A stretch of 64,000 bases of DNA from Mycoplasmatota bacterium (GTDB lineage: Bacteria > Bacillota_I > Bacilli_A > RF39 > UBA660), in contig JALFCF010000005.1 of assembly GCA_022771205.1 (NCBI GenBank), positions 90,399 through 154,398 of the forward strand, read 5' to 3'. Positions 2,117 to 60,303 of the stretch are shown in pieces. Position numbers and translations under genes: made by a program. The notes under the pieces were generated by a model. That model was not told the DNA's origin, did not search any database, and saw only the letters and a list, made by a program, of their open reading frames with translations. The first letter of the stretch is position 1. Each line of letters opens with the position of its first letter.

Positions 2117-2611
2117 TTAATTCTCTTCTTTTTGTTGACTATATAAGTCTAAAGCGATTGCTAAATCTCTTGGAATAGCCATCATACCACCAGCAAGCAT
2201 AGTAAGTAATCCTTCTCTTGATGGTATAGTAGCATATTCAGCTAATTTAGCTTGATCTGCTTTTTCTCCATCTACAATCCCTACTTTTAAAACTAATGCT
2301 GGATGATCTTTAGCAAACTCTGACAATACCTTAATTGGTGCAATTTGATCTTCACCAAAAGCAAATGCACTAGGTCCGTTTAATGATTCATTTAAATCAA
2401 TATCTAAATCATTAAATGCACGAGCCATCAAAGTATTTTTATATACTTTATAATCTGAATTAGATTCTCTTAATTTAACACGTAATTCTTTTGCTTCACT
2501 ATCAGTAATACCACGATAATCGAATAAGACAATAGTTTTAGCATTTTGAACACGTTCCTTAATTTCATCTATAACTACTTGCTTTTGCTTTAAGATTGCT
2601 TCACTTGCCAT
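2117..2611 (-). CDS. rplJ: 50S ribosomal protein L10
   Basis: L10 homology. Start corrected to ATG at 2611 (MASEAILKQKQ...) behind an AAGGAGG SD; the 17 codons before it in the ORF track are leader read-through. Confidence 0.85.
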   Translation of the reverse strand: MASEAILKQKQVVIDEIKERVQNAKTIVLFDYRGITDSEAKELRVKLRESNSDYKVYKNTLMARAFNDLDIDLNESLNGPSAFAFGEDQIAPIKVLSEFAKDHPALVLKVGIVDGEKADQAKLAEYATIPSREGLLTMLAGGMMAIPRDLAIALDLYSQQKEEN

Positions 2612-2769
2612 CAAAACACCTCCTTCATATTTAGGGATGCCATAAAAAAGGTTCTCGAGCAACCGAGAACCTTCTTATATTCACTTAAGATTAAGTCCTC
2701 GGTAGGATTTATTTTTGTACCTACTGTCTATGGCACCTACAAATTGTCTTTATTATACCCTATAACTTA
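2612..2769 (-). promoter_or_regulatory. rplJ (L10) leader with attenuator-like hairpin
   Basis: 158-nt untranslated gap between rplA and rplJ contains the hairpin GGTTCTCGGTTGCTCGAGAACC followed by a U run. Its position matches the autoregulatory L10(L12)4 leader of Firmicutes. Confidence 0.4.
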
Positions 2770-3465
2770 CTATTTGTCAAAATTATTTTCAACTTTAATT
2801 CCAGGACCCATAGTTGAAGCTATAGAAATACTCTTAACATAATCACCTTTTACTGTTGCTGGCTTAACTCTTAAAATAGCTGATACGAAAGCATTTAAGT
2901 TTTCCATCAAATCTTCTTCAGAGAATGAAACCTTACCAATAACTCCGTGAATAATTCCGAAACTATCAGCACGATATTCAACACGTCCAGCTTTAACTTC
3001 TTGAACAGCTTTAGCAACATCTAAAGTAACAGTTCCAGTTTTAGGGTTAGGCATTAATCCTTTTGGTCCTAAAACTCTACCTAATTTACCAAGAAGAGGC
3101 ATCATATCAGGAGTAGCAATCATAGTATCAAAATCGAACCAATTTTCTTTTTCGATTTTTTCTAACATATCAACATCTCCAACATAATCAGCACCAGCTT
3201 CTTTTGCTTGATTAGCCTTTTCTCCTTTTGCAATAACTAAAACTTTTGTAGTTTTACCAGTTCCTTTAGGAAGTACAATAGCACCTCTTAATTGTTGGTC
3301 AGCTTTTTTAGTATCAATATTTAATCTGATAGCAACTTCAACTGTACCATCAAAAGAACTAGTAGAAGTTTCTTTAACTAACTTAACAGCTTCTTCTTTA
3401 GTATATGCTTTATTACGTTCTACTTTAGACATAGCTTCTGTATATTTCTTACTTCTCTTTTTCAT
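2770..3465 (-). CDS. rplA: 50S ribosomal protein L1
   Basis: [26 protein letters not shown]..., L1 family. Confidence 0.9.
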
Positions 3466-3532
3466 CTTTATTCCTCCTTACGTGGTAATAGCGGTTAAAA
3501 CCTTCCACATAGGTATAACCTACATAGAACAA

Positions 3533-3970
3533 TTACTTATCTGTATAACCAGGGATTGAAATACCCATATTTTTAGCAGTACCAGCAACAATCTTCATTG
3601 CAGCTTCTACATCATAAGCATTTAAATCTGGTAATTTGATCTCAGCAATTTCTCTTAATTGATCTTCAGTTAATGTAGCAACAACTTCATTAGCTCCTTT
3701 AACTGCACCTTTATTGATTTTTGCATATTTTTTAAGTAAAAATGCAACTGGTGGAGTTTTAATTACAAAATCAAAACTTCTATCATCATAAATTGAAATT
3801 TCTACTGGTAAAATATCTCCCATCTTATCTCTAGTAGCATCATTATACTTAGTACAAAAATCTTGTAAATTAATTCCTGCAGGTCCTAAAACTGTTCCAA
3901 CTGGTGGAGCTGGTGTAGCTTTTCCTGCTGGGATTTGTAATTTAATCTTCTTTATTGCTTCCTTTGCCAC
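3533..3970 (-). CDS. rplK: 50S ribosomal protein L11
   Basis: L11 homology (KLQIPAGKATPAPPVGTVLGPAGIN). Start set to the second GTG at 3970, 9 nt after AGGAGG; the first GTG abuts the SD. Confidence 0.88.
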   Translation of the reverse strand: MAKEAIKKIKLQIPAGKATPAPPVGTVLGPAGINLQDFCTKYNDATRDKMGDILPVEISIYDDRSFDFVIKTPPVAFLLKKYAKINKGAVKGANEVVATLTEDQLREIAEIKLPDLNAYDVEAAMKIVAGTAKNMGISIPGYTDK

Positions 3971-4122
3971 GAAAAACACCTCCTATAATTTTAGTTTTCG
4001 CGAGTGGTCCAAATAGCTTGATTCCCGCTTTCATAAATGCAAACCATGCTTCCCACTAAATCTATATTAATTTCAATATAGCCCCTAAATAATAACATAT
4101 AAATTATATTTTTGCAACTATT

Positions 4123-9236: not shown

Positions 9237-11462
9237 TTACTGATAAACTGTATTCAAATCAATATATTCTAATAATTTATCAACCTTTCTCGCACCAAAA
9301 TTAGAGTAATCACAATTATCTTTCACGTATTTACATATTTTTTTCTTCCTATCCAATTCAAGTTTAGGAAATTTTTGTTCTACTTTTTGCATAATTATTT
9401 TATTAATAGTGGCTGCCGAAAAAGGTAAAAAATGTAAAACCAAGTCTATGCGATTAACAAGTTCCGAACCAAAAAATTCCCTTAAATCATTTTCAATCAA
9501 ATCTTTACTATTCTCTAAAAAACCAATTCCTTCTCTATTACTTCCCAAATTAGAAGTCATAAAGATAATAACATTAGAAAAATCCACAGAATCTCCATAA
9601 GATGTAGTCATAACCCCATCGTCTAAAACTTGTAAAAAAAGCTTTAAAACACTTGGATTTGCTTTTTCTATTTCATCTAATAGCAAAACAGCATAAGAGT
9701 GTATTTTTATTCTTTCCAAAATTGTATTCCTATCATCATAACCAACATAACCAGGAGGAGAACCAATTATTTTAGATATAGAAGTAGCATCTTTATACTC
9801 ACTCATATCTAATTTTATAAAAGCTTCTTTCGGATAAAGTAAATCGGCAAATTTACGTACTAATAAAGTTTTACCTAACCCACTTTTCCCAACAATAAGA
9901 AAACATTTCGACGCTTTTTTATTTAAGTTTTTACAAAATACAGATTTAGTCAAACTAGTAATAGCTTCTTCCTGCCCAACAACTGTTTTCTGTAACTCCC
10001 TCTTTAAAGATTCAGAATTTAATGACAAAATTTTTTTAATAGGTATCTTAGTTTTAGAATAAATAACATCATAAACAGTATCTATAGATAAAATTGGTTT
10101 AATATTACTTTGTGTTTGAATCAGAAGATTATTAATTTTGGATTGTAAAAAAGCCTCTCTTTCCCGTAAATATGTAGCTCTTTTAAAATCATGATCAACA
10201 ATAGATTTATTTTTTTCATCAATCAAATTGGTAAGCTCTAATTGAAGATTGTGAATTTTTTCATTTTCTAATGTATTCATACTAATTGTCTTTGAACAAG
10301 ATTCGTCTAATAAATCCAATGCTTTATCTGGTTGTTTTCCACTAGATATATATCTTTCTGATAAATCAGCTATAGAAAATAAAATTTCATCGGTTAATAT
10401 AACACCATGATAATTTTCATATATTTCCTTGACATTCAATAAAATAGATTTTACATTTTCTAAATCTGCCTCCATAACAATTACTTTTTGAAATCTACGA
10501 TCAAAAGCTTTATCACCTTCCAAAAACTTCATATATTCATGTTTCGTAGTTGCTCCGATTACCTTAATTTTACCTCTAGCTAAATATGGTTTTAAAATAT
10601 TGGAAGCATCTATTGCTCCTTCAGCTCCCCCAGCACCAATAATAGTATGAATTTCATCTATAAATAAAATGATATTAGAAACACTCTCTAATTCATCTAT
10701 CATCTTATTAATTCTCTCCTCAAACTCTCCACGATATTTAGTACCTGCAACTAAAGAAGAAATAGAAACACTTAAAACCCTCATATTTTTAAGTTCATTA
10801 GGAACTAAACCTAAAACTATTCTTCTGGCTAATTCCTCTACTAAAGCAGTTTTACCTACTCCCGCATCACCTATAAGTAAAGGATTACTTTTTTTTCTTC
10901 GAAGTAAAATTTCAATAATATTACAAATTTCTTCATCTCTTCCAATCACAGGATCAAAGTCGCCATTTTTTGCTGCTTGTGTAAAATCAGTAGAAAACTC
11001 TTCTATAGTTAATTTACTAAACGTATTTTTTCCTTCACATACAAGATGACTAGAAAATTGTTCATATAAATTATCTAAATCTATATTCATTCCCATCATA
11101 ATTCTATTCGCAACACCTTCTCCTTCTTCTAACAGCGACAAAAATAATTGTTCCACAGTAACATCCTTATTTTCATCTTTACTATCTAAAATAGCATTTT
11201 CAATAATCTTTTTTAATAAAGGAGTATATAGAAACCATTTAGAAATTTTTCTTCCAACTCCTATAACTTCTATAAGCTTATTTTTAAATGATGAATAAGT
11301 AATACCATTTTGTTCTAAAAAAGATAAAAATTTTTTATCAGAATAATGCAAAATAGACAACAATAAATGCTCACTACTAACATAAGGATGCTTTAATTCT
11401 TGCATCTCTTTTTTGGACATAATTAATATTTTTTGGGCTTCTTCCGTGAATTTCGAAAACAT
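9237..11462 (-). CDS. clpC: ATP-dependent Clp protease ATP-binding subunit ClpC-like (Clp-N repeats + two AAA+ modules)
   Basis: Start corrected to MFSKFTEEAQKIL (ATG at 11462 behind an AGGAGA SD). D1 Walker A is GDAGVGKT; D2 is GKSGLGKT; sensor motifs are present. No ctsR/mcsA/mcsB lies upstream. Confidence 0.8.
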   Translation of the reverse strand: MFSKFTEEAQKILIMSKKEMQELKHPYVSSEHLLLSILHYSDKKFLSFLEQNGITYSSFKNKLIEVIGVGRKISKWFLYTPLLKKIIENAILDSKDENKDVTVEQLFLSLLEEGEGVANRIMMGMNIDLDNLYEQFSSHLVCEGKNTFSKLTIEEFSTDFTQAAKNGDFDPVIGRDEEICNIIEILLRRKKSNPLLIGDAGVGKTALVEELARRIVLGLVPNELKNMRVLSVSISSLVAGTKYRGEFEERINKMIDELESVSNIILFIDEIHTIIGAGGAEGAIDASNILKPYLARGKIKVIGATTKHEYMKFLEGDKAFDRRFQKVIVMEADLENVKSILLNVKEIYENYHGVILTDEILFSIADLSERYISSGKQPDKALDLLDESCSKTISMNTLENEKIHNLQLELTNLIDEKNKSIVDHDFKRATYLREREAFLQSKINNLLIQTQSNIKPILSIDTVYDVIYSKTKIPIKKILSLNSESLKRELQKTVVGQEEAITSLTKSVFCKNLNKKASKCFLIVGKSGLGKTLLVRKFADLLYPKEAFIKLDMSEYKDATSISKIIGSPPGYVGYDDRNTILERIKIHSYAVLLLDEIEKANPSVLKLFLQVLDDGVMTTSYGDSVDFSNVIIFMTSNLGSNREGIGFLENSKDLIENDLREFFGSELVNRIDLVLHFLPFSAATINKIIMQKVEQKFPKLELDRKKKICKYVKDNCDYSNFGARKVDKLLEYIDLNTVYQ

Positions 11463-11537
11463 AATATCATCTCCTATATTTATTGTAAAAATAAGAAGAA
11501 AGAGTTTCAAGAAATAAAGTACCCAAAAAATAGACAA

Positions 11538-11562
11538 AAAAAGAGCCCTTAGACTCTTCTTA
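11538..11562 (-). terminator. intrinsic terminator after the transporter gene
   Basis: On the minus strand, AAGAG-TCTAAGGG-CTCTT hairpin followed by TTTTTTT. Confidence 0.4.
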
Positions 11563-13086
11563 CTAAATTAAAATTAAAATTGTAAATACGATTAATAATA
11601 CAACTAATAATTCTAAAACTAATTTCCAAATTGCTTTAAACCATTTAGAATATGGAATCTTTAAATAAGATAACATACCCATTAAAATCAAACTAGTTGG
11701 GGCAACTAACATAGTTAAACCATAAGCTGCTTGATATACAACTGCCATAATTGGATAATTATCAGCATTTGTAACAAGACTAGATAAATATGGTAAAGAA
11801 CTTTGGAAAGCATAAGCGATATCTCCATTAAAGAATGCAGATAAAATTGCTACTATAAAAGTAGTAAATACATTAAATCCATCTGTAATTCCTAAAATAG
11901 CTTTATAAATTACTAATTGGAATGGATGATAAGTTGTAATTACTAAAATAGTATAAATCATAATAGCAATAACAGCTGGTCCTAACGCACGCTTAGCACC
12001 TTGAACAAAACCATCTAGTACCTCGTCAAATTTAACTTTATAAATCAAAGCTAAAATAAACATAAATACCATTAATACGACAACCATATCGACTAAAGTC
12101 CAAGATCCAAATGCATTAACTGTTCCTAACAATTTGCCAAATAAAGCAAATCCAAACACTTCAAATCCAGTAACAGCAGTAGTAGCATCATCCATAGCAT
12201 TAAGTCCAAATGCACCAGACCAAGAAATAAATGCTAATACTAAAATAATGAAGATAATTGATAAAACAATAGCTAATGGCCAAACAATATGTTTCTTACC
12301 AGCTACTATCGTAGGAACATATAAATCCTCTTCTGAATCTTCTGCTGTAACTACAACTACTTCTTCTTCTCTTACAGCTGCTTTTGTATTTTTTGAAGAT
12401 TTAGCCTTAGTAGTTTTAGCAGGTTTTTTCTCTTCTTTTGCAGTAACTTTTTTTACTTTTGCTTTTTTCTCACTCTTTTGTTGTTTTCTAATATATAAAA
12501 CTGTATTTACAATCAACAGTACTACTCCTAAAAATAATACAATACATTTAGGCAACATTCCATTAGTAAATTCAGTTCCTAAAATACTTGAAAAAATACC
12601 AGTATTATTATATCCAAAAGTAGTACCTAGCATACCCATCATAGTAGAACCAACTATAGCAAGTGCTGCTACAATCTTATCAAATCCCATAAGTAAAATT
12701 AAAGATACTAACATAGGATAAAATATAATTAATCCAAGTTGTAAACCACAAATAGATGTAAGAAGAGCAATAATTACCATCATAATAGATAAAACAACTA
12801 CTTCTTTACCTTTAAATGCAGATCTTAATTTATCCAACATCGTACGATATGCACCAATTTTATTTAACACACCGTAAAATCCACCAACAGCTAATATAAA
12901 GGCTGCAATATAGCCAAAATATGATACTGCAGTAACAGGATAATTGAATAAATCAAAAAGTCCCATCTGAACGCGTCCTTGATCAACGTAACTACCTGAA
13001 TAATAAGCAGCTGGTAAAATCCAAGTAAGTAACATTAATACTAATAATGTAACAAGAACGACTTTAAATGTATTATGTTTCTTCAT
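11563..13086 (-). CDS. polytopic membrane transporter, YfcC/DcuC-like anion permease
   Basis: At least 10 predicted TM helices. Start corrected to ATG at 13086 (MKKHNTFKVV) behind GGGAGG. Contains a roughly 55-aa Lys-rich hydrophilic insertion. Confidence 0.45.
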   Translation of the reverse strand: MKKHNTFKVVLVTLLVLMLLTWILPAAYYSGSYVDQGRVQMGLFDLFNYPVTAVSYFGYIAAFILAVGGFYGVLNKIGAYRTMLDKLRSAFKGKEVVVLSIMMVIIALLTSICGLQLGLIIFYPMLVSLILLMGFDKIVAALAIVGSTMMGMLGTTFGYNNTGIFSSILGTEFTNGMLPKCIVLFLGVVLLIVNTVLYIRKQQKSEKKAKVKKVTAKEEKKPAKTTKAKSSKNTKAAVREEEVVVVTAEDSEEDLYVPTIVAGKKHIVWPLAIVLSIIFIILVLAFISWSGAFGLNAMDDATTAVTGFEVFGFALFGKLLGTVNAFGSWTLVDMVVVLMVFMFILALIYKVKFDEVLDGFVQGAKRALGPAVIAIMIYTILVITTYHPFQLVIYKAILGITDGFNVFTTFIVAILSAFFNGDIAYAFQSSLPYLSSLVTNADNYPIMAVVYQAAYGLTMLVAPTSLILMGMLSYLKIPYSKWFKAIWKLVLELLVVLLIVFTILILI

Positions 13087-21604: not shown

Positions 21605-21817
21605 TTAAGGTAAAATTTCTAAACTTTGAGTCAAAATATCACTATAACTAAATGTTTTTATTTTATTATTTTCAGTTTCAATAGTAAATATTGCTGGATA
21701 TAAATCAACAATCACACCATGAAATTCATCTACTTGATTTCGTGAACCATGAAAGCGAAAAGAGCACTTTATACCTTGATTTTGTTCTACAACTTTCTTT
21801 ATATTATCAATCATCAT
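21605..21817 (-). CDS. veg: Veg-family small protein
   Basis: FRFHGSRNQVDEFHGVIVDLYPAIFTIE...FSYSDILT resembles Veg. Confidence 0.65.
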   Translation of the reverse strand: MMIDNIKKVVEQNQGIKCSFRFHGSRNQVDEFHGVIVDLYPAIFTIETENNKIKTFSYSDILTQSLEILP

Positions 21818-22578
21818 CTTGGATACCCCACATACATAGTACCATTAGTGATAATTCCTCCCATTCCATCTTTACCATACTTTGTTTTTTCTAAGATGTG
21901 AATTAAATCTATGCTTTTATTTCTATCTGCTAATGCTAAAGAACAGGCTAAAATTGCTGGATCCAACGCATGAATATTAATTCTTTTAGGACTTGAAGCA
22001 AAATTAGCACCTGCTTTTATTAATTCTTCATAATTAGACTGACAAGCCCCCGCTATAATAATTAACTTATCTTGACTTTTTTCATATTTCCTAGCTTCTC
22101 TTACAGCTTCAATAAAATTCAAAGAGTTTTGATAATCTCCTCTATTTTTCTTTAAATAAGCATCATGACCAGTTATCACAACTATATCAGGCTGAAATTC
22201 ATCTAATAATCCATGAATTTTTCTAGGTATTTCTATCTCAGAAACAGTAAGACCATTAGCTTTTACGTTCATTTCCTTATAAAAATTCATACATCTTTTT
22301 AAATAATCACTATCCCCATCAATATGTAAAATCTTACCAGGTAAATAAAAATACTGACTCCTATCCATTTCTAAACTTCTTAAACTTTTTTCCACTATCT
22401 GTTTGTCAGAATCCAAAGAAACATTAGTCTTAACTAAATCAGATAACAAACTATCTGCATAAAGTCTTAAATCAGCACCTTTTAAAAATGCAATATTTCC
22501 ATCAATAGAAACTATTTTAAAAACGATATCATGATTATGAGAAATCCTTGTAACATAATCACCTTCATGAAAATCCAT
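21814..22578 (-). CDS. yabG: sporulation-specific protease YabG
   Basis: N-terminus MDFHEGDYVTRISHNHDIVFKIVSIDGNIAFLKG..LRLYADS is YabG-like. Located between ksgA and veg. Confidence 0.65.
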   Translation of the reverse strand: MDFHEGDYVTRISHNHDIVFKIVSIDGNIAFLKGADLRLYADSLLSDLVKTNVSLDSDKQIVEKSLRSLEMDRSQYFYLPGKILHIDGDSDYLKRCMNFYKEMNVKANGLTVSEIEIPRKIHGLLDEFQPDIVVITGHDAYLKKNRGDYQNSLNFIEAVREARKYEKSQDKLIIIAGACQSNYEELIKAGANFASSPKRINIHALDPAILACSLALADRNKSIDLIHILEKTKYGKDGMGGIITNGTMYVGYPR

Positions 22579-28774: not shown

Positions 28775-29025
28775 CCCTCCTAAAAAAAAACTATTATAAA
28801 TATAAGGACGAAAACTCGCGGTACCACCTTATTTTATAATAGTAAATATTATACGCTTAAATAGTTAACGCCTATCTACGATTACACCTACATATCGATG
28901 CAATAGTTCAGAAGCCATATCATATAAAATGTTCATATCCATTTCCACCACCAGGACTCTCTATAACAAACATTGCTTATAAGACTCTTCCTCAAAACAA
29001 TCAATATGGCTAGAGTATAACACAA
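28775..29025 (-). promoter_or_regulatory. T-box riboswitch leader of metS
   Basis: Minus strand contains AAGGTGGTACCGCGAG (reverse complement of 28815..28830), which matches the T-box consensus AGGGUGGNACCGCG, about 45 nt upstream of the metS SD. The variable N is U, complementary to an A73 discriminator. Confidence 0.55.
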
Positions 29026-34330: not shown

Positions 34331-34350
34331 ATTATTTCCCGGGAAATAAT
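34331..34350. repeat. perfect 20-bp palindrome ATTATTTCCCGGGAAATAAT abutting the rsmI stop, with flanking A/T runs
   Basis: Read directly. A near-identical copy (ATTATTTCCTGGGAAATAAT) lies at 41389..41408 and a half copy at 41376..41385. Confidence 0.6.
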
Positions 34351-40944: not shown

Positions 40945-40957
40945 AAATCACCTCAAA

Positions 40958-41045
40958 ATAAAAGCGCACATAAAAGTTAATCATTAAGGCTGCTACTTCC
41001 CAGTCCTGACCTGTTTCTGACACTTTTATTGCGCTACAACCATTT
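40958..41045 (-). ncRNA. ffs: signal recognition particle RNA, small (4.5S-like) type; ends approximate
   Basis: Minus strand reads GUAGCGCAAUAAAAGUGUCAGAAACAGGUCAGGACUGGGAAGUAGCAGCCUUAAUGAUUAACUUUUAUGUGCGCU. It contains the domain IV motif AGGUCAGG...GGAAG.AGCAGCC, closed by the helix GCGCAAUAAAAGU/ACUUUUAUGUGCGC. Confidence 0.7.
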
Positions 41046-41095
41046 TAATATAAAGAAACAAATTTGTAAATAATATTTTTAATTATCTATATTAT

Positions 41096-41116
41096 ATGTT
41101 CCACGTGAAACTTTTT
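41096..41116. repeat. copy 1 of the 21-bp motif ATGTTCCACGTGAAACTTTTT (CACGTG-centred palindrome)
   Basis: Read directly. Identical to copy 2. Confidence 0.7.
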
Positions 41117-41207
41117 AGATACATAAAAAAAACGAAATCTCCGATAATGATTCTTTTAACATATTTTTCTTTTTACTAAATTCACCATATAAAACAGAAT
41201 CAAAACA

Positions 41208-41228
41208 ATGTTCCACGTGAAACTTTTT
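41208..41228. repeat. copy 2 of ATGTTCCACGTGAAACTTTTT
   Basis: Read directly. 112 bp after copy 1. Confidence 0.7.
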
Positions 41229-41432
41229 TTTAAATATATATGTGTTTATATTATTATTGAACTAATATAAAACACTATTAAAAACAATAAAATCAAATTC
41301 ATTATTTCAATATCATTAATATATAAATTTTATATATGTTAAGTAGAACAAAATCATAATAAAAGCACCATAAAAATTATTTCCCAAAATTATTTCCTGG
41401 GAAATAATCTAATTAATAACAAAAAGAAATAT

Positions 41433-41453
41433 ATGTTTCACGTGAAACTCTTC
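41433..41453. repeat. copy 3, ATGTTTCACGTGAAACTCTTC (perfect 14-bp palindrome GTTTCACGTGAAAC)
   Basis: Read directly. A degenerate fourth copy (ATGTTAAGTAGAAC) lies at about 41336..41349. Confidence 0.65.
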
Positions 41454-41771
41454 AAATAAATTAATATAAAAAACCATAACACTAGTAAAAAATACCCACA
41501 TAACATACTACCTTTCTTTGAAAATTATTTCTATAAATATTAATTATATATATATATATACGTAAAATTTATGCTTGAAAACAGAAAAAAACATGACTTG
41601 CGTTTTATATTTGTTGTTTCAAAAAACTTTTTTCCACAGGTGATAGAAGCAAAATTGAATAAATAAAAAAACAAACATTAAAAATATATTGATATATAAG
41701 GAATCTAAAACGCAAAATAAAAGAAGTAAAATTTTTACTTCTTTTATTCTAAATAACCATTATAAATCAAA

Positions 41772-47466: not shown

Positions 47467-47916
47467 TTATAGGTTAGATTTTCTTTTTCTCATCATAAAA
47501 TCTAATCTAGACGCTCTAGATATTTGATTTTCTAAAGTTCGATAAGAAACTGGAACAATAATTTCTTTATTATTATCAAATATAACCTTAGTATTAACAC
47601 TATCTACCTTTTCAAAAAATTTAATTCTTTTTAAAGAAATCCAAATACAATCTTGAGACTTTGGAGAAGTAGTAGGAAAAACAATCAAATTATCTGTATC
47701 TTCTACAATTACAGGTACTTTATATTCAGCTCCTAATATTGATTTAGCACTATCTTTTCTTCCTTCATAAGTACTACCAAAATACTTACAACTATCTTCC
47801 ATTATTTCAAATGGACTCTGATTAACCAAAAAGCGATCTTCATCCTCATATACTAAGCTTTGATTAATTTCATTTGGCATAATTGCCAAAGTTCCTTTAT
47901 TAATTTCATATTCCAT
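47467..47916 (-). CDS. comK: ComK-family transcription factor homolog
   Basis: YEINKGTLAIMPNEI...SCKYFGSTYEGRKDSAKSILGAEYKVPVIVEDTDNLIVFPTTSPKSQDCIWISL...VSYRTLENQ. This parallels B. subtilis ComK (SYEVNGATIAVLP...SCRFFGSSYAGRKAGT...FLFPTLSS...QCGWIS...ISYNSFENQ). Start ATG at 47916 behind AGGAGGGGG. Confidence 0.6.
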   Translation of the reverse strand: MEYEINKGTLAIMPNEINQSLVYEDEDRFLVNQSPFEIMEDSCKYFGSTYEGRKDSAKSILGAEYKVPVIVEDTDNLIVFPTTSPKSQDCIWISLKRIKFFEKVDSVNTKVIFDNNKEIIVPVSYRTLENQISRASRLDFMMRKRKSNL

Positions 47917-48046
47917 AAAATTTCCCCCTCCTAAACATGAAATTGTCCCTAGAATACTAAATTCAATTGTCATATTTTGTCATTTTATAAAATTTGCTCA
48001 ATAAAATTATCAAAAATAAAAGAATCCACAATATTTGTGGATTCTT

Positions 48047-54491: not shown

Positions 54492-56345
54492 ATGAAATAT
54501 GAAATAATAGTAGTAGGTGGAGGTCACGCTGGATGTGAAGCAGCTTTGGCATCTGCACGAAAAGGACATAAAACATTATTAGTAACATCTAATATCAAAA
54601 ATATTGCAGATATGCCTTGCAACCCATCAATAGGAGGCCCAGCAAAAGGTATAGTAGTTCGAGAAATAGATGCTTTAGGTGGCGAAATGGGAAGAAATGC
54701 AGATAAAGGTGCTCTACAAACAAAAATGTTAAATACAAAAAAAGGGCCAGCTGTTCAAGCTTTACGTTTTCAAGCCGATAAGATAACTTACCCAAAAGAA
54801 ATGTTAAATACATTAAAAAATACAGAAAATTTAGATATAAAAGAAGCAATGGTAGAAAAATTAATAGTAATTGAAAATAAAGTAGCAGGTGTTGAGTTAG
54901 AAGATGGTGAAAAAATAGAATCTGAAGCAGTAATCTTAACAACAGGTACTTATTTAAAAGCTGTCGTATTGGCTGGTTCAACTCGCAAATCAAGCGGACC
55001 TCATGGAGAAAAAGAATCAAAGTTTCTAAGTGATAATTTAAAAGATTTAGGATTTACTATCAAAAGATTAAAAACAGGTACTCCTCAAAGAATTGATAAA
55101 AATACAATAGATTATTCTAAAACACAAGAAGAAAAAGGAGATTCAGTACCACGTACATTTTCTTTTGATAATATTGTGTATAAAGAGCCAAAAGATCAAA
55201 TATCTTGTCATTTGATTTATACAACTCCAAAAACACATGAAATAATAAGAGAACATTTGAATGAATCTAGTATGTATGGTGGTTATGTTGAAGGTGTAGG
55301 TCCAAGATATTGTCCATCTATAGAAGATAAGGTCGTAAGGTTTAGCGATAAAGAACGTCACCAGTTATTTTTAGAACCAGAAAGTCTTTATTATGACGAT
55401 ATTTATCTTCAAGGTTTTTCTACTAGTATGCCAAATGAAATTCAAGATATAATGGTACATAGTTTGCCAGGATTAGAGAAGGCAAAAATATTAAAATACG
55501 GTTATGCAATAGAATACGATGCTATAGACTCTAAACAATTAAAAAGATCATTAGAAACAAAAATAATAGAAAATTTATATACTGCTGGACAAATTAATGG
55601 AACAAGTGGATATGAAGAAGCTGCAGGACAAGGATTAATTGCTGGAATTAATGCCTCTTTAAAACTAGAGGGAAAAGAACCGTTGATTTTAAAAAGAAAT
55701 GAATCATATATTGGTGTATTAATAGATGATTTAGTAACAAAAGGTGTTAAGGATCCATATCGTTTATTAACATCTCGTGCAGAATACAGACTATTATTAA
55801 GAAATGATAATGCAGATCTAAGATTAAGAGACTACGGATATAAAGTTGGATTAATATCTGAAGAAAGATATGGTAAGTTTACAACAAAAAAACAAAACAT
55901 CTATAAAATAACAGAACTATTAAATCAAACACGGATTACTCCTAAAAAAGAAACAAATGAATATATAGAAAAAATTCCATCAACTCCATTAAAAGATGGA
56001 CTTTCCTTATATGATTTTTTGAAAAGACCAGAAGTATCAATGGAAAATATAAAACACTTTTTAGATTTAGATTATTCAAATGAAGAATTAGAGCAAGTAG
56101 AAATCAATGCAAAATATGAAGGATACATAAAAAAAGCTAATAAAGAAGCAGAAAAAATGTTAGCGTTAGAGGAAAAAATAATCCCAGATAATATAGATTA
56201 TGAAAAAGTACCTAATTTAGCCAGTGAGGCACGACAAAAGCTTACAGAAATAAAACCAACAACTATAGGGCAAGCTTCTAGAATTAGCGGAGTAAACCCA
56301 GCGGATATTTCAATATTGATGGTTTATTTAAGAAGGAATGGATAA
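54492..56345 (+). CDS. mnmG: tRNA uridine 5-carboxymethylaminomethyl modification enzyme MnmG
   Basis: FAD-binding VVGGGHAGCEAA. Start ATG at 54492 behind GGAGTGA. Confidence 0.92.
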   Translation: MKYEIIVVGGGHAGCEAALASARKGHKTLLVTSNIKNIADMPCNPSIGGPAKGIVVREIDALGGEMGRNADKGALQTKMLNTKKGPAVQALRFQADKITYPKEMLNTLKNTENLDIKEAMVEKLIVIENKVAGVELEDGEKIESEAVILTTGTYLKAVVLAGSTRKSSGPHGEKESKFLSDNLKDLGFTIKRLKTGTPQRIDKNTIDYSKTQEEKGDSVPRTFSFDNIVYKEPKDQISCHLIYTTPKTHEIIREHLNESSMYGGYVEGVGPRYCPSIEDKVVRFSDKERHQLFLEPESLYYDDIYLQGFSTSMPNEIQDIMVHSLPGLEKAKILKYGYAIEYDAIDSKQLKRSLETKIIENLYTAGQINGTSGYEEAAGQGLIAGINASLKLEGKEPLILKRNESYIGVLIDDLVTKGVKDPYRLLTSRAEYRLLLRNDNADLRLRDYGYKVGLISEERYGKFTTKKQNIYKITELLNQTRITPKKETNEYIEKIPSTPLKDGLSLYDFLKRPEVSMENIKHFLDLDYSNEELEQVEINAKYEGYIKKANKEAEKMLALEEKIIPDNIDYEKVPNLASEARQKLTEIKPTTIGQASRISGVNPADISILMVYLRRNG

Positions 56346-56346
56346 T

Positions 56347-56988
56347 ATGACAGAACAAGAATTTATAGATTCAATTAAAGAATTAGGTATAGAACCAACA
56401 GACAAACAATTATACCAGTTAAGTAAGTTCTACGAACTATTAATAGAATGGAATCAAAAAATAAACTTAACTCGAATTACAGATAAAAAAGAAGTTTATT
56501 TAAAACATTTTTATGATAGTCTTACAATATCAAAAGAATTGGATTTAAATAAGATTAATACTCTTTGTGATGTAGGAACAGGAGCAGGATTTCCAGGAAT
56601 TGTATTGAAAATTTTTTATCCAGATCTGAAAATAACTCTAATAGATTCATTATTAAAAAGAGTAAAATATTTAAATGAAATAATAAAAGAACTGAATTTA
56701 AAAGAAATAAAGGCTATTCACACAAGAGCTGAAGATTACAAAGAAACTTTTGATATCGTTACTGCAAGAGCAGTAGCAAATATAGAAAAATTATTAACAT
56801 ATACCATGCATTTAGTAAAAAAAGATGGGAAACTTATTGCGATGAAAGGAAATATAGATGAAGAAATAACAGAAGATGTTAGAAAAAGAATAGATAAAAA
56901 GTATAAACTAATAAAAATTAATAAGTTTTATTTACCAAAAGAAGAAAGTCATCGCAGTTTAGTTATTATAGGAAAAAAAGGGCTTTAG
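56347..56988 (+). CDS. rsmG: 16S rRNA (guanine527-N7)-methyltransferase
   Basis: GidB family (DVGTGAGFPGIVLKI). Start at the second ATG, 9 nt after AAGGA. Confidence 0.85.
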   Translation: MTEQEFIDSIKELGIEPTDKQLYQLSKFYELLIEWNQKINLTRITDKKEVYLKHFYDSLTISKELDLNKINTLCDVGTGAGFPGIVLKIFYPDLKITLIDSLLKRVKYLNEIIKELNLKEIKAIHTRAEDYKETFDIVTARAVANIEKLLTYTMHLVKKDGKLIAMKGNIDEEITEDVRKRIDKKYKLIKINKFYLPKEESHRSLVIIGKKGL

Positions 56989-57081
56989 CTCTTTTTATTT
57001 TCATTTTTCTTGAAAGTAAAATGAAAATAGTCTATAATGATAACATAGGATAACTGTAAGAATAAAAAGTGAGGGATGAGT

Positions 57082-58536
57082 ATGCAAGAACAAACTAAAG
57101 ATGAAGTTGTATACCTATATTTAGATGATATCATACCAAACAGATTTCAACCTCGCGAGGTTTTTGACGAAAGAGCTTTAAAAGAATTAGCTGTATCAAT
57201 TAAAGAACATGGAGTAATTCAGCCAATTATAGTAAGAAATGTTAATGGTAAGTATGAAATAATTGCTGGTGAAAGAAGATATAAAGCCTCTGCTATGGCG
57301 GGTTTAACAAAAATTCCCGCAATTATTAGAAATTTAGATGATAAAGAAAGTTCAAAAGTAGCATTGTTAGAAAATCTCCAAAGAAGAAATTTAAATCCGA
57401 TCGAAGAAGCTAGAACTTATCAAAAAATATTAGAACTTGATCAAATGACTCAAGAAGAATTGGCAAAAACAATGGGAAAAAGTCAATCAGCAGTTGCTAA
57501 TAAAATAAGACTATTAGGCCTTACAGATGAAGTACAAGATGCTTTATTGAAAGAACAAATATCAGAGCGTCATGCTAGAACATTATTAAATATATCAGAT
57601 GCAAAGAAGCAAAAAGAAATGCTAAAAAGGATAATAAATGAAAAAATGACGGTACGGCAATTAGAAGCAGAAATAAAAAGTATGTACCCTAAAGAGGAGG
57701 GGGAAACAGTGAGTAATACATCTACAGCAATCACATCAGCAGCTTTTGTAAATACTAGTCCATTGATGCCAACAGCAGATTTACCAGAAGATAAATCCAA
57801 TTATGGTCAAATAAAAATTGCACCACCCACTGGTACAGAAGAAGAATATCAACCAAGATTTATAAATTATGGAGAGATAAAAGATGATGATGAAGATGAT
57901 GATGAAGTACCAATTGGTGGAATTAATCCGGACAGTACTCAATCTATTCCTAATATAAAAGATATTAAGGAAAAAGCAGTTGACATTAATGCTCCACAGG
58001 CACAGCCAACAGCAGATTTAGACAGTTTATTAAATATTACAGCAGCATCCTCAGGAATTTCAAAACCAGATGAACATTATAAATTTATTACTCCAGCAGA
58101 AGAAATAGTAAAAACAGATGCAAGCAAAGCAAATAAAGCTAAGGTACAAGATTATTTTAAAACTCCCGATTTGATACCAGTAAATTTACCAAATGAAGTC
58201 CAATCTACTAAAGAAACAAACCAAGTTTCTTTATCTGAGATAGAAGCTAAATCAAAGCTGCAAAATAAATCAGCTGAATCAACAACCTTGCATGATTCAA
58301 GATATGATAAAAAGACTTTAAACAATACAAACTTAAATACAAACTTATTTGGCAATATCCAAAGAACAAATTTGAACGATAAGAAAAACAATCAATTTAC
58401 AGTACAACAATCTATAGATATGATTAGAAACTTAGTGGACGAATTAAATCGTCATGGAGTAAACGCAGATATTGATGAAATGAACTTTTCTAAATCATAT
58501 CAAATTATTATAAAATTAGATAAGACAGCAGAGTAA
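57082..58536 (+). CDS. noc: ParB/Noc-like nucleoid occlusion protein homolog with long low-complexity C-terminal extension
   Basis: ParB N-domain (IIAGERRYKAS) and HTH (QEELAKTMGKSQSAVANKIRLLGL) lie within the first ~200 aa. About 280 extra residues follow: Ser/Thr/Asn/Lys-rich with an acidic DDDEDDDE block and a short structured-looking C-terminus. Located in the rsmG-noc-soj-spo0J slot. Confidence 0.7.
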   Translation: MQEQTKDEVVYLYLDDIIPNRFQPREVFDERALKELAVSIKEHGVIQPIIVRNVNGKYEIIAGERRYKASAMAGLTKIPAIIRNLDDKESSKVALLENLQRRNLNPIEEARTYQKILELDQMTQEELAKTMGKSQSAVANKIRLLGLTDEVQDALLKEQISERHARTLLNISDAKKQKEMLKRIINEKMTVRQLEAEIKSMYPKEEGETVSNTSTAITSAAFVNTSPLMPTADLPEDKSNYGQIKIAPPTGTEEEYQPRFINYGEIKDDDEDDDEVPIGGINPDSTQSIPNIKDIKEKAVDINAPQAQPTADLDSLLNITAASSGISKPDEHYKFITPAEEIVKTDASKANKAKVQDYFKTPDLIPVNLPNEVQSTKETNQVSLSEIEAKSKLQNKSAESTTLHDSRYDKKTLNNTNLNTNLFGNIQRTNLNDKKNNQFTVQQSIDMIRNLVDELNRHGVNADIDEMNFSKSYQIIIKLDKTAE

Positions 58537-58566: not shown

Positions 58567-58634
58567 GAAAAGCATTTAAAAAAGAATATTTATTTGATAC
58601 AATATATTAGTAAAAATGGAAACAGGTGATAAAT

Positions 58635-59420
58635 ATGGGAAAGGTGATATCTTTAGTAAATCAAAAAGGTGGAGTGGGAAAAACAACAACCAGTATCAAT
58701 CTTTCTGCATCATTAGCAGTACTAGGTAAAAAAGTATTATTAATCGATTTAGACCCGCAAGGGAATACAACAACAGGGGTTGGTATTAATAAAGGTGACA
58801 TAGAACGAAGTGTCTATGATGTTTTAATTGGAGAATGTAAAATATCAGAAGCAATGATTAAAACGAAATATAAAAATTTATATGTTCTACCAGCAACAAT
58901 TAACTTAGCTGGTTTAGATATAGAATTGGTAGAAAAAAGTAAACAAGAATCAGGATTTTTAAAAGGAGAACAATTAAAAATCCATTTGATTGATATAAAA
59001 GATAGCTTTGACTATATTATAATAGACTGTCCACCATCATTAGGCGTTATTACAACCAATGCTTTAACAGCCTCTAATTCGGTTATAATTCCAGTTCAAT
59101 GTGAATTCTTTGCATTAGAAGGAATTACTCAATTATTAAAAACTATTATGTTGGCACAGAAAAGTTTAAATCCAACATTGGATATAGAAGGTGTATTATT
59201 AACAATGTTAGATTCAAGAACTAACCTAGGATTTGAAGTCGTAGAAGATATCAGAAAATTTTTCAAAGAGAAGGTATACAACACAATAATTCCAAGACTA
59301 GTTCGATTGACAGAAGCACCTTCACATGGAGAACCAATTATTGCGTATGATCCTAAAAGTCGTGGAAGCGAAGCTTATTTAAATCTTGCAAAGGAAGTGA
59401 TTGAAAGAAATGGAAAATAA
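58635..59420 (+). CDS. soj: ParA-family ATPase Soj
   Basis: Deviant Walker A KGGVGKTTT. Start ATG at 58635 behind AGGTGA. Confidence 0.92.
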   Translation: MGKVISLVNQKGGVGKTTTSINLSASLAVLGKKVLLIDLDPQGNTTTGVGINKGDIERSVYDVLIGECKISEAMIKTKYKNLYVLPATINLAGLDIELVEKSKQESGFLKGEQLKIHLIDIKDSFDYIIIDCPPSLGVITTNALTASNSVIIPVQCEFFALEGITQLLKTIMLAQKSLNPTLDIEGVLLTMLDSRTNLGFEVVEDIRKFFKEKVYNTIIPRLVRLTEAPSHGEPIIAYDPKSRGSEAYLNLAKEVIERNGK

Positions 59421-60303
59421 TAAAAGAAGAGCTTTAGGAAGAGGCTTAGAAGAACTTTTTTATAACGAACCAATTGCTTACGATAAAATGGAAGAAAAAA
59501 TATTAACAGAAACTCCAAAAGAAGAAATAACGAATGTAAAAATATCCGAATTAAGAAGCAATCCATATCAACCAAGACAAGTATTTAAACAAGAAGCTCT
59601 ACAAGAATTATCAGATTCTATTAAAGAACATGGAGTTTTTCAGCCAATAATTATTAAGAAAAGTATTAAAGGGTATGAAATAATAGCTGGAGAGCGACGT
59701 GTAAAAGCATCACAAATGGCTGGACTTGATGAAATTCCTGCTATTATTAGAGATTTTACAGACGAAGAGATGATGGAGATTGCACTATTAGAAAATCTTC
59801 AAAGAGAAAACTTAAATCCAATTGAGGAATCTCGTGCTTATAAAAAATTGATAGAAACTTTAAATATTACACAAGAAGAGCTAGCAAAAAGATTAGGTAA
59901 AAGTAGAAGTTATATTACTAACATGATAGGACTACAAACATTACCTGCACCAATCCAAGATATGATTTCTGACAATAAAATGAGTATGGGTCATGCCAGA
60001 GTTCTAAGTAAATTAGAAAATGAAAATCAACAAAAAGAATTAGCAGATAAAATTATTGAAGATGGTATGAGTGTTCGAGAATTAGAAAATTTAACTAAAT
60101 CTTCAGACGAATACGAAAGAACTCATAAAATAAGAAAACACGTCAATACTCAAACTAATGAATATCAATATTTAGAAGATGAATTATGTGATAAACTTGG
60201 AACAAAAGTTAAAATAAAGTCAAATAAAATAGAGATTAGTTTTGTGAATGGAAACGACTTGAATCGCTTATTAGAAATTATGAATTTAGATACAAGGGGG
60301 TAA
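59410..60303 (+). CDS. spo0J: chromosome partitioning protein ParB/Spo0J
   Basis: GERRVKAS ParB box, HTH (QEELAKRLGKSRSYITNMIGL). Start ATG at 59410; the track start is a TTG. Confidence 0.88.
   Translation: MENNKRRALGRGLEELFYNEPIAYDKMEEKILTETPKEEITNVKISELRSNPYQPRQVFKQEALQELSDSIKEHGVFQPIIIKKSIKGYEIIAGERRVKASQMAGLDEIPAIIRDFTDEEMMEIALLENLQRENLNPIEESRAYKKLIETLNITQEELAKRLGKSRSYITNMIGLQTLPAPIQDMISDNKMSMGHARVLSKLENENQQKELADKIIEDGMSVRELENLTKSSDEYERTHKIRKHVNTQTNEYQYLEDELCDKLGTKVKIKSNKIEISFVNGNDLNRLLEIMNLDTRG

Follow-up and report, generated by a model that had tools for sequence, protein, structure and literature searches.

Noc is the textbook nucleoid-occlusion factor of Gram-positive bacteria, acting through the exposure of an N-terminal membrane helix that is gated by cytidine triphosphate (CTP). 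Across the ParB family the effector peptide is usually placed in the N-terminal tail, where it serves ParA activation in ParB and forms the membrane helix in Noc. What, then, could be the role of a Noc-type protein from which this helix is missing and in which a long stretch of unusual sequence is found elsewhere? This question is raised by a gene at positions 57082 to 58536 of a stretch of 64,000 nucleotides from a Mycoplasmatota bacterium (the window; assembly GCA_022771205.1, contig JALFCF010000005.1, positions 90,399 to 154,398), which an earlier note, made from the letters alone, had described as a ParB paralogue in the position of noc with a ~280-aa low-complexity extension. We find that the gene is a Noc orthologue by descent and position, yet a Noc-derived variant rather than canonical Noc: it is not filed under the canonical family because it lacks the membrane-targeting helix and stays below the curated score cut-off. 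The extra region is real and is an insertion of ~235 aa ahead of a normal Noc C-terminal domain, and not a C-terminal extension of ~280 aa as first described. Our favoured explanation, which we regard as probable, is that the protein is a Noc-derived CTP clamp loading at Noc-binding sites (NBS), in which the effector function has moved from the membrane helix to a motif-rich linker.

The variant has the domains and the position of Noc

The gene is one unbroken forward-strand frame (57076–58536) of 486 aa when counted from the ATG at 57076, and residue numbers of the variant refer to this 486-aa frame throughout. The true start is likely the ATG at 57082, which is preferred because a GAGGG sequence ends at 57075, 6 nt 5' of this ATG, because the corresponding methionine is the first residue in all homologues aligned and because public gene calls give a protein of 484 aa. 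The ParB and helix-turn-helix (HTH) domains had been placed within the first ~200 residues, and this is where Pfam locates them (Table 1). The N-terminal domain (NTD) is predicted to bind CTP, since it carries both the GERRxR and ENLQR motifs: no variation was seen at G65-E66-R67-R68 or at E99-N100-L101-Q102-R103 amongst 61 clade members, and canonical Noc has these residues as well. For B. subtilis Noc, CTP binding requires R89 and N121.

That the protein belongs with Noc rather than with the Spo0J encoded next to it is indicated by several comparisons. The NCBIfam Noc model TIGR04285 scores the variant at 284.5 bits and the neighbouring Spo0J at 240.4 bits. Amongst proteins of solved structure the best sequence matches are G. 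thermoleovorans Noc (PDB ID: 7NFU; 214.6 bits) and B. subtilis Noc (184.9 bits), followed by ParB/Spo0J proteins at 181 and 170 bits; a Foldseek search with the AlphaFold model gave the same order, with 7NFU as top match (E 1.8e-21). The DNA-binding domain (DBD) of the model superposes on that of the Noc-NBS complex 6Y93 with a root-mean-square deviation of 1.0–1.6 Å. Four residues (Q173, K179, K184 and R201) have been reported to switch ParB from parS to NBS, with a single lysine at position 179 or 184 being sufficient (PMC7383237). In an alignment with G. thermoleovorans Noc, Q137, K143 and R165 of the variant correspond to Q173, K179 and R201 (C. crescentus ParB numbering) and are invariant across the clade, so that the residues for NBS specificity, including one of the two lysines, are present. 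The neighbouring Spo0J exhibits the parS-type R and G at the specificity positions (R173 and G201), which in the variant are occupied by Q137 and R165; the variant also lacks the LGRGL peptide and the ParB_C domain (PF23552) of Spo0J. Judged by sequence, residues 1–204 are thus a Noc-type CTP-binding N-domain and an HTH domain with NBS-specificity residues, Noc-like rather than Spo0J-like, and the DNA-recognition side of the protein looks canonical.

The far end of the protein leads to the same assignment. When a profile of 108 clade C-termini was compared with one built from 74 canonical Noc C-termini, hhalign gave a probability of 97.0 (E 8.8e-11, 40 columns), whilst the control against the clade's own Spo0J C-terminal domain (CTD) gave a probability of only 0.2%. 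When residues 213–435 were removed in silico, the match to TIGR04285 grew from positions 1–203 to positions 1–255 of 255. The AlphaFold model treats the last ~40 residues with confidence (pLDDT ~85) as a helix followed by a beta-hairpin, so the C-terminus that had been called short and structured-looking is indeed predicted to be folded, and on sequence grounds is the ordinary Noc-type dimerisation domain (residues 441–486). A ParB-type dimerisation domain had been proposed as the comparison to make for this end; that candidate was rejected, as there is no PF23552 match and no homology to the Spo0J CTD. Since the Noc CTD ends the same frame, the extra sequence is an insertion within Noc and not an extension of it.

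The position of the gene had also been read correctly. It is flanked by rsmG (56338–56988) and by soj/spo0J (58626–60303), soj beginning 90 bp past its stop codon as it does in relatives, and its distance to oriC, taken as the point of divergence of dnaA and rpmH-yidC, is ~6 kb. This origin was placed by gene order only, with DnaA-box counts within the window not above chance.

The membrane-targeting helix is absent

Canonical Noc proteins open with a segment MKHxFSRFFGLGEK, followed by a variable spacer. As the earlier note had stated for the membrane-targeting helix, this segment is absent, and it is absent from all clade members examined: the variant starts at the equivalent of approximately residue 20 of G. 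thermoleovorans Noc, every other clade member likewise, and within the window no upstream in-frame start is possible. The variant therefore has no ~10-aa N-terminal amphipathic helix, a feature reported in all Noc homologues examined in the literature; a limited literature search found no prior description of a Noc without it. The consequence of such a loss is reported for NocNdelta10, which does not bind membranes and is non-functional in nucleoid occlusion, although it still binds CTP and closes the clamp. Nor was an LGRGL-type ParA-activating peptide found at the N-terminus, where just ~8 residues precede strand 1.

A membrane-targeting sequence (MTS) relocated to the insert was considered and rejected through a HeliQuest-type scan of the whole insert, in which no MTS-like segment was found. 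The native MTS has a hydrophobic moment of 0.53, a hydrophobicity (H) of 0.64 and a charge of +2; the best windows of the insert reach H values of at most 0.12, and all of them fall in unconserved stretches. Direct membrane binding by the variant is thus not predicted.

The insertion is acidic, disordered and under constraint

Canonical Noc proteins have ~20 basic residues (…KPKPKRKAFSRD…) between the DBD and the CTD. Here their place is taken by ~235 acidic residues (205–440), rich in N, K, T, D, E, S and P and with a net charge of -14. The description of this region as long, partly acidic and disordered holds: AlphaFold assigns most of it a pLDDT below 50 and predicts short helices at 294–300, 315–318, 340–353 and 386–393. 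The peptides IKDDDEDDDEVPIGG and VQQSIDMIRNLVDELNRHGVNADIDEMNF, which the earlier note had quoted, are both present in the protein. A Foldseek search with the model matched residues 1–205 alone and left the insert without a match.

Conservation across 61 sequences revealed seven near-invariant short islands in this otherwise variable region (Table 1). Motif 5, the most widely retained, aligns with a VDALL sequence in a 300-aa relative that is described below. A distant clade member, P0150 (512 aa), has two copies of the FINYGEI-type motif (NQFINYGEIE and SKYINYGEVG); this doubling suggests that the motifs act as duplicable modules. The acidic run after FINYGEI is encoded by a (GAT)n-like / 12-bp microsatellite tract (57881–57907), and its length and composition differ between relatives. 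The insert as a whole ranges from ~170 to ~310 aa among relatives, its distal part (387–440) being rich in insertions and deletions, and slippage in the (GAT)n tract may account for part of this length variation.

Although the insert evolves fast overall (26–34% identity in distant relatives), it is under purifying selection: in the closest genome pair (dS 0.55), dN/dS over the whole insert is 0.10, compared with 0.015 in the NTD and DBD and 0.027 in the CTD. It is also restricted to a single architecture. An exhaustive search with residues 205–486 over 1.84 billion representatives returned 69 matches, and every full-length match had the same architecture, so that the insert was rejected as a module of other families or of mobile elements; the rest of the window is free of the insert motifs. 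Two odd gene calls stand aside from this picture. P0155 (325 aa) and P0148 (245 aa) contain the C-terminal half of the insert and the Noc CTD joined to unrelated N-termini, Ig/fibronectin-like in P0155 and Cys-rich in P0148, and are probably fragmentary calls or chimeras of assembly or gene calling.

The long form is clade-wide and has a short-linker relative

Whether close relatives conserve the extra region had been posed as a check, and they do: more than 120 protein clusters at 57–100% identity cover 98–100% of the query, with lengths of 427–510 aa. The gene is carried by 80 species-level genomes, all metagenome-assembled genomes (MAGs) of uncultured gut Bacilli/Tenericutes/Mycoplasmatota. 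These MAGs, which NCBI places in Bacilli incertae sedis, were recovered from humans, chickens, ruminants, rabbits and mice; Ca. Faecimonas intestinavium, Ca. Onthousia and Clostridium sp. CAG:417 are amongst them. The gene order mnmG-rsmG-noc-soj-spo0J-mscS is kept in 80 loci. In a comparison across the clade (loci L001–L080), the median identity of the NTD and DBD in distant members is 85% for Noc and 67% for Spo0J (compared over 57103–57687 and 59521–60108 of the window, respectively), with values of 85% for Soj and 56% for RsmG; within the clade Soj identity is 85–100%. In two relatives the immediate surroundings of noc differ: in L209 noc and soj are separated by a 360-aa open reading frame (ORF) without Pfam match (11399–12481, reverse strand) that is read from the opposite strand, and in L013 approximately 1.5 kb of extra DNA (2471–4001) is found between rsmG and noc.

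The long insert is thus a genuine clade-wide feature, not peculiar to one genome. It is also lineage-specific, because it is confined to a narrow clade (the 69 matches amongst 1.84 billion representatives) while the canonical linker is ~20 aa long. The concern that the extension might turn out to be a routine linker in related taxa is therefore justified within the clade, where it is routine, but not beyond it, where the linker is short and basic.

Two other loci encode shorter forms of the protein. Locus L102 (4056–4865) encodes a canonical Noc of 269 aa with an MKFPFLQ… start and a KKKKKKNK linker. Locus L158 (7707–8609, reverse strand; metagenome contig Ga0247608_10006083, from a related low-GC lineage) encodes a Noc of 300 aa in the same synteny that has no membrane helix, an acidic linker of ~55 aa and a Noc CTD. 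The …DEPEDLFDFDF of this linker aligns with motif 1 and its VDALL(KS) with motif 5, whilst motifs 2–4, 6 and 7 are absent. In evolutionary terms, the L158 protein seems to stand midway from canonical Noc to the long form. The three types form a graded series, from canonical Noc over a helix-less protein with a short acidic linker to a helix-less protein with a long, motif-rich linker.

Noc-binding sites occur amongst parS sites near the origin

A search for NBS- and parS-like palindromes, which had been advised for this genome, was carried out in the window and its relatives and gave cognate sites of both kinds (Table 1): one perfect NBS and one NBS with a single mismatch, both kept in relatives, as well as three parS-like sites. 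The perfect site, of which 0/100 shuffles gave an example, has exactly the sequence of the NBS core in the crystallised Noc-NBS duplex and is perfectly conserved at the same position in the relatives L081–L086. The one-mismatch site lies inside the parS cluster, in the gyrA-ffs intergenic region (41046–41771) ~10 kb from dnaA. In sister species with GyrA proteins of 94–95% identity (Ca. Faecimonas intestinavium and others), this spacer contains three parS and two NBS while the rest of its sequence has diverged (L081:12718–13254 and the equivalents in L082–L086); as the search for GyrA homologues gave only proteins of 94–100% identity, this comparison is one between close relatives only. In the 80 relatives, no NBS or parS was found within +/-4 kb of noc itself.

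A metagenome scan for the NBS palindrome extends these observations. Of the 120 matching loci listed, 85 have a low GC content and can be aligned to the window between 26 and 64 kb, with a nucleotide identity of 65–78%; ~16 further low-GC loci do not align to it. Within the same matches, the NBS are found mostly in the spacer 3' of gyrA together with parS, with dnaX-ybaB, recF/gyrB, jag-mnmE, mnmE-mnmG and pth-rsmI as recurrent minor positions, and 74 of 179 NBS have a parS at a distance of 100 bp or less. Many of these listed loci contain tandem arrays 3' of gyrA, homologous to ~41.0–41.8 kb of the window, in which parS alternates with NBS. The arrays are built either from units of 61 bp or ~120 bp, each with one parS and one NBS, or from parS-NBS pairs with a fixed offset of 28–29 bp that recur every 200–400 bp; alternation is perfect in L095, L140, L142, L143 and L177 (permutation p 0.003–0.03 each). 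No prior description of interspersed parS and NBS was found in a limited full-text literature search. This alternation suggests a possible cooperation of ParB and Noc. It is the window and its close relatives that tie the long-form protein directly to a mixed parS/NBS cluster. For comparison, B. subtilis and S. aureus have dozens of NBS distributed across the half to two-thirds of the chromosome nearest the origin.

A proposed clamp with its effector in the linker, and the alternatives

The earlier note had suggested a divergent tethering or condensing mechanism, which is a reasonable inference from the sequence and can now be given a more definite shape. Following the established ParB/Noc cycle, a dimer linked through its CTDs would load at NBS, bind CTP, close its N-gate and slide along DNA as a clamp, with the ~235-aa linker making the DNA-holding lumen of this clamp much larger. 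The linker would probably also be the effector module, because the N-terminal tail is absent while conserved motifs sit in the linker; these motifs would dock one or more putative protein partners rather than lipid, because the linker is acidic and without a basic amphipathic helix. Such a clamp would act on the origin-proximal centromere region alongside Spo0J, and not as a genome-wide tether of DNA to the membrane, because the NBS adjoin and intermix with parS close to oriC. Taken together we consider this explanation probable. Its parts differ in strength: in the identity and architecture of the protein we have high confidence, whilst the docking of a partner is advanced tentatively and may well prove otherwise. 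In a more specific form of the proposal, the protein would be a re-purposed Noc: a second CTP clamp associated with the centromere, which would load jointly with ParB onto interleaved arrays of parS and NBS beside oriC and whose acidic linker would dock a putative divisome, replication-initiation or origin-anchoring partner; as a whole, this version is possible but rather unlikely.

Several observations weigh against a linker-effector clamp. The variant remains below the curated TIGR04285 cut-off of 315 bits, both in its native form (284.5 bits) and as an insert-less chimera (298.8 bits), and the fourth specificity position (the equivalent of 184) is G148 here and G, S, A or N in the clade, lysine being absent. 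Beyond approximately residue 212 and through the insert, Pfam and NCBIfam give no known domain at E <= 1, and AlphaFold gives the insert weak local helices only. The dN/dS of 0.03 obtained for the insert islands is partly circular, as the islands were picked by their conservation. In the case of the sites, four distant lineages with the long form showed neither NBS nor parS in the 10 kb on either side of noc; the metagenome scan, which used the strict 18-bp palindrome and gave at least 120 loci, recognises only loci overlapping the window; and the loci with arrays come from related low-GC lineages, none of them conspecific with a locus of known noc. Finally, DNA binding, CTP binding and the absence of membrane binding are all three inferred for this protein from its sequence.

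The alternative that survives best keeps the NBS clamp and takes away the partner. In this case the acidic linker would be passive or regulatory, either an entropic spacer that enlarges the lumen and so helps the clamp past roadblocks such as neighbouring ParB, or a DNA-mimicking auto-inhibitor of the DBD, with membrane-tethering occlusion simply lost. The net charge of -14 and the poly-Asp/Glu run, where the canonical linker is basic, would suit such a role, as would the mostly disordered and fast-evolving character of the insert, its variable length and its indel-rich distal part. However, seven islands with invariant hydrophobic, aromatic and proline residues persist clade-wide, one motif has been doubled as a unit in P0150 and motif remnants are already found in the short linker of L158: sequence-specific islands are not needed for a pure spacer or charge role, and we therefore regard a passive linker as distinctly unlikely.

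A different alternative turns from the linker to the sites and the operon. The variant could be a second centromere protein that works with Soj, a paralogue within the partition complex acting via ParA/Soj or via SMC loading. The embedding of NBS in parS arrays and their alternation with parS would fit this idea, and so would the location of the gene directly 5' of soj-spo0J and the strong conservation of Soj in the clade; yet the LGRGL-type ParA-activating peptide present in the neighbouring Spo0J is missing from the variant, and no basic ParA-stimulating motif was seen in the insert. We regard a second centromere protein of this kind as quite improbable.

The possibility of canonical nucleoid occlusion, with the anchor relocated to a motif of the insert or to a lipidated or membrane-protein partner, we consider highly improbable. 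The anchor is modular in principle, since the native helix of B. subtilis Noc is reported to be replaceable by a heterologous amphipathic helix, and the CTPase, NBS and CTD elements that such a protein would need are intact. Nevertheless, hydrophobic moment, hydrophobicity and positive charge do not come together in any segment of the insert as they do in the native MTS, the acidic conserved motifs disfavour anionic membranes, and only a few NBS were seen, close to the origin and not dispersed. An artefact in the form of a frameshift, misassembly, read-through fusion or private low-complexity expansion is refuted: for it speak only the unusual length and composition and the position of the acidic run in a slippage-prone (GAT)n tract, and against it the same single-ORF architecture, seen in over 120 clusters and in 80 genomes, the Noc CTD in frame, purifying selection on the insert and the 90-bp distance to soj, which recurs in relatives.

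The linker-effector clamp thus remains the explanation that we favour, and the clade is of interest for what it leaves in place. Having dispensed with the helix, it keeps the CTPase domain, NBS recognition and CTD under strong constraint, and so offers a natural experiment on the other roles that a Noc clamp can have. This raises the questions of whether a ParB-family clamp can signal via linker motifs and whether ParB and Noc cooperate at a shared origin-proximal locus. If true, the re-purposed Noc outlined above would represent a previously undescribed effector mode for ParB/Noc proteins and a new kind of composite centromere. There is also a point of annotation, as members of these clusters are currently named merely 'ParB/RepB/Spo0J family partition protein' in public databases.

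Features of the locus and its surroundings

In the rsmG-noc spacer, a terminator-like hairpin (56975–56996) just precedes the promoter-like site listed in Table 1. Beside oriC, between dnaN and recF, lies a ComK-family gene (47467–47973, reverse strand) that is found clade-wide (L081–L086, L207–L210). The window also encodes YabG (21814–22578), and BofA is encoded in relatives; these competence- and sporulation-associated genes thus occur in small-genome MAGs labelled Mycoplasmatota or Bacilli by NCBI. Rfam matches at gathering level in the window are the signal recognition particle (SRP) RNA (ffs; 40948–41045, reverse strand), which borders the parS cluster, a T-box leader 5' of metS (28801–29004, reverse strand) and an L10 leader (2635–2751, reverse strand).

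Table 1. Positions of the Noc-variant gene, its domains and motifs, and the associated sites (window coordinates unless a metagenome locus is named).
Feature	Position	Strand	Remarks
Noc-variant gene	57082..58536	+	484 aa; in-frame ATG at 57076 gives 486 aa
ParB N-terminal CTPase domain, residues 12-102	57109..57381	+	Pfam PF02195, E 3e-34; GERR (65-68) and ENLQR (99-103) invariant
HTH DNA-binding domain, residues 105-203	57388..57684	+	Pfam PF17762 (HTH_ParB), E 8e-34; Q137, K143, R165
Lineage-specific insertion, residues 205-440	57688..58395	+	Acidic, mostly disordered (predicted), ~235 aa
Insert motif 1, FVNxxPLxPTxxLPE, residues 224-237	57745..57786	+	61-sequence conservation; can be aligned in part with the L158 short linker
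Insert motif 2, YGxxxIAPP, residues 243-251	57802..57828	+	61-sequence conservation
Insert motif 3, FINYGEI, residues 262-268, then acidic run DDDEDDDE	57859..57906	+	Conservation
Insert motif 4, KxxAxDIN, residues 298-305	57967..57990	+	Conservation; weak helix 294-300 in model
Insert motif 5, ADLDSLLN, residues 313-320	58012..58035	+	LxxLL-like short amphipathic acidic helix (predicted); most widely retained motif
Insert motif 6, FITPAEEIVKTD, residues 337-348	58084..58119	+	Conservation; helix 340-353 in model
Insert motif 7, (E)DYFKTPDL, residues 358-366	58147..58173	+	Conservation
Noc-type C-terminal (dimerisation) domain, residues 441-486	58396..58533	+	hhalign against canonical Noc CTD; helix 443-459 and hairpin 464-481 (predicted)
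Perfect NBS TATTTCCCGGGAAATA, pth / rsmI-like spacer (40 bp)	34333..34348	.	18-bp palindrome TTATTTCCCGGGAAATAA at 34332-34349
One-mismatch NBS TATTTCCTGGGAAATA, inside parS cluster	41391..41406	.	Half-site adjacent at 41378
Three parS-like sites TGTTyCACGTGAAACT (41097, 41209, 41434), gyrA-ffs intergenic region	41097..41449	.	3 found vs 0.1 expected
Promoter-like site TTGAAA-17-TATAAT, rsmG-noc spacer	57010..57038	+	11/12; consensus match only, the regional total of such matches being not above shuffle expectation
soj (parA) and spo0J (parB, 300 aa), directly 3' of the Noc variant	58626..60303	+	Spo0J: parS-type residues R/G, LGRGL N-terminal peptide, ParB_C domain
parS/NBS arrays in metagenome loci	L142:4117-4455; L140:13110-13296; L095:2838-3314; L143:6012-6627; L107:209-1752; L162:23-1286; L177		

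Comparison with known systems

Canonical Noc from B. subtilis and G. thermoleovorans (TIGR04285; PDB IDs: 7NFU, 7NG0, 7OL9, 6Y93) shares with the variant the ParB_N CTPase fold with GERR and ENLQR, the Q/K/R NBS-specificity HTH, the Noc-type CTD, the position between rsmG and soj-spo0J and an identical 16-bp NBS in the genome. It is set apart by the ~20 N-terminal residues, including the 10-aa membrane-targeting helix, which the variant lacks, by a linker of ~20 basic residues as opposed to ~235 acidic residues with conserved motifs, and by dozens of widely spread NBS where those seen for the variant are few, origin-proximal and mixed with parS; the family score of the variant also lies below the curated cut-off.

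In the case of chromosomal ParB/Spo0J (PF02195 + PF17762 + PF23552), a paralogue of which is encoded two genes downstream, the similarity extends to the NTD and HTH folds and the CTP-clamp motifs. The variant, however, has Q and R at the specificity positions where Spo0J has R and G, no LGRGL N-terminal peptide and a CTD unrelated to that of the clade's Spo0J. A further system is KorB of plasmid RK2 (PDB IDs: 8QA8/8QA9), recovered as a structural relative in the structure and sequence searches (27–32% identity): it is likewise a ParB-family CTP-dependent sliding clamp and delivers its output via a partner, KorA, and not via ParA or the membrane, but it is a plasmid transcriptional repressor with another DNA site, and its partner binds a folded domain and not linker motifs.

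The short Noc of the L158 type resembles the variant in its synteny, in its Noc CTD, in having no membrane helix and in its acidic linker, where EDLFDFDF and VDALL align to motifs 1 and 5; this linker is, however, only ~55 aa long and has none of motifs 2–4, 6 and 7. SlmA of E. coli is a nucleoid-occlusion factor that binds DNA site-specifically and acts via contact with FtsZ, without membrane tethering. Being a TetR-family protein of unrelated fold and no CTPase, it can serve as a functional analogue only, one in which the effector logic of protein contact is the same as that proposed for the motif-rich insert.

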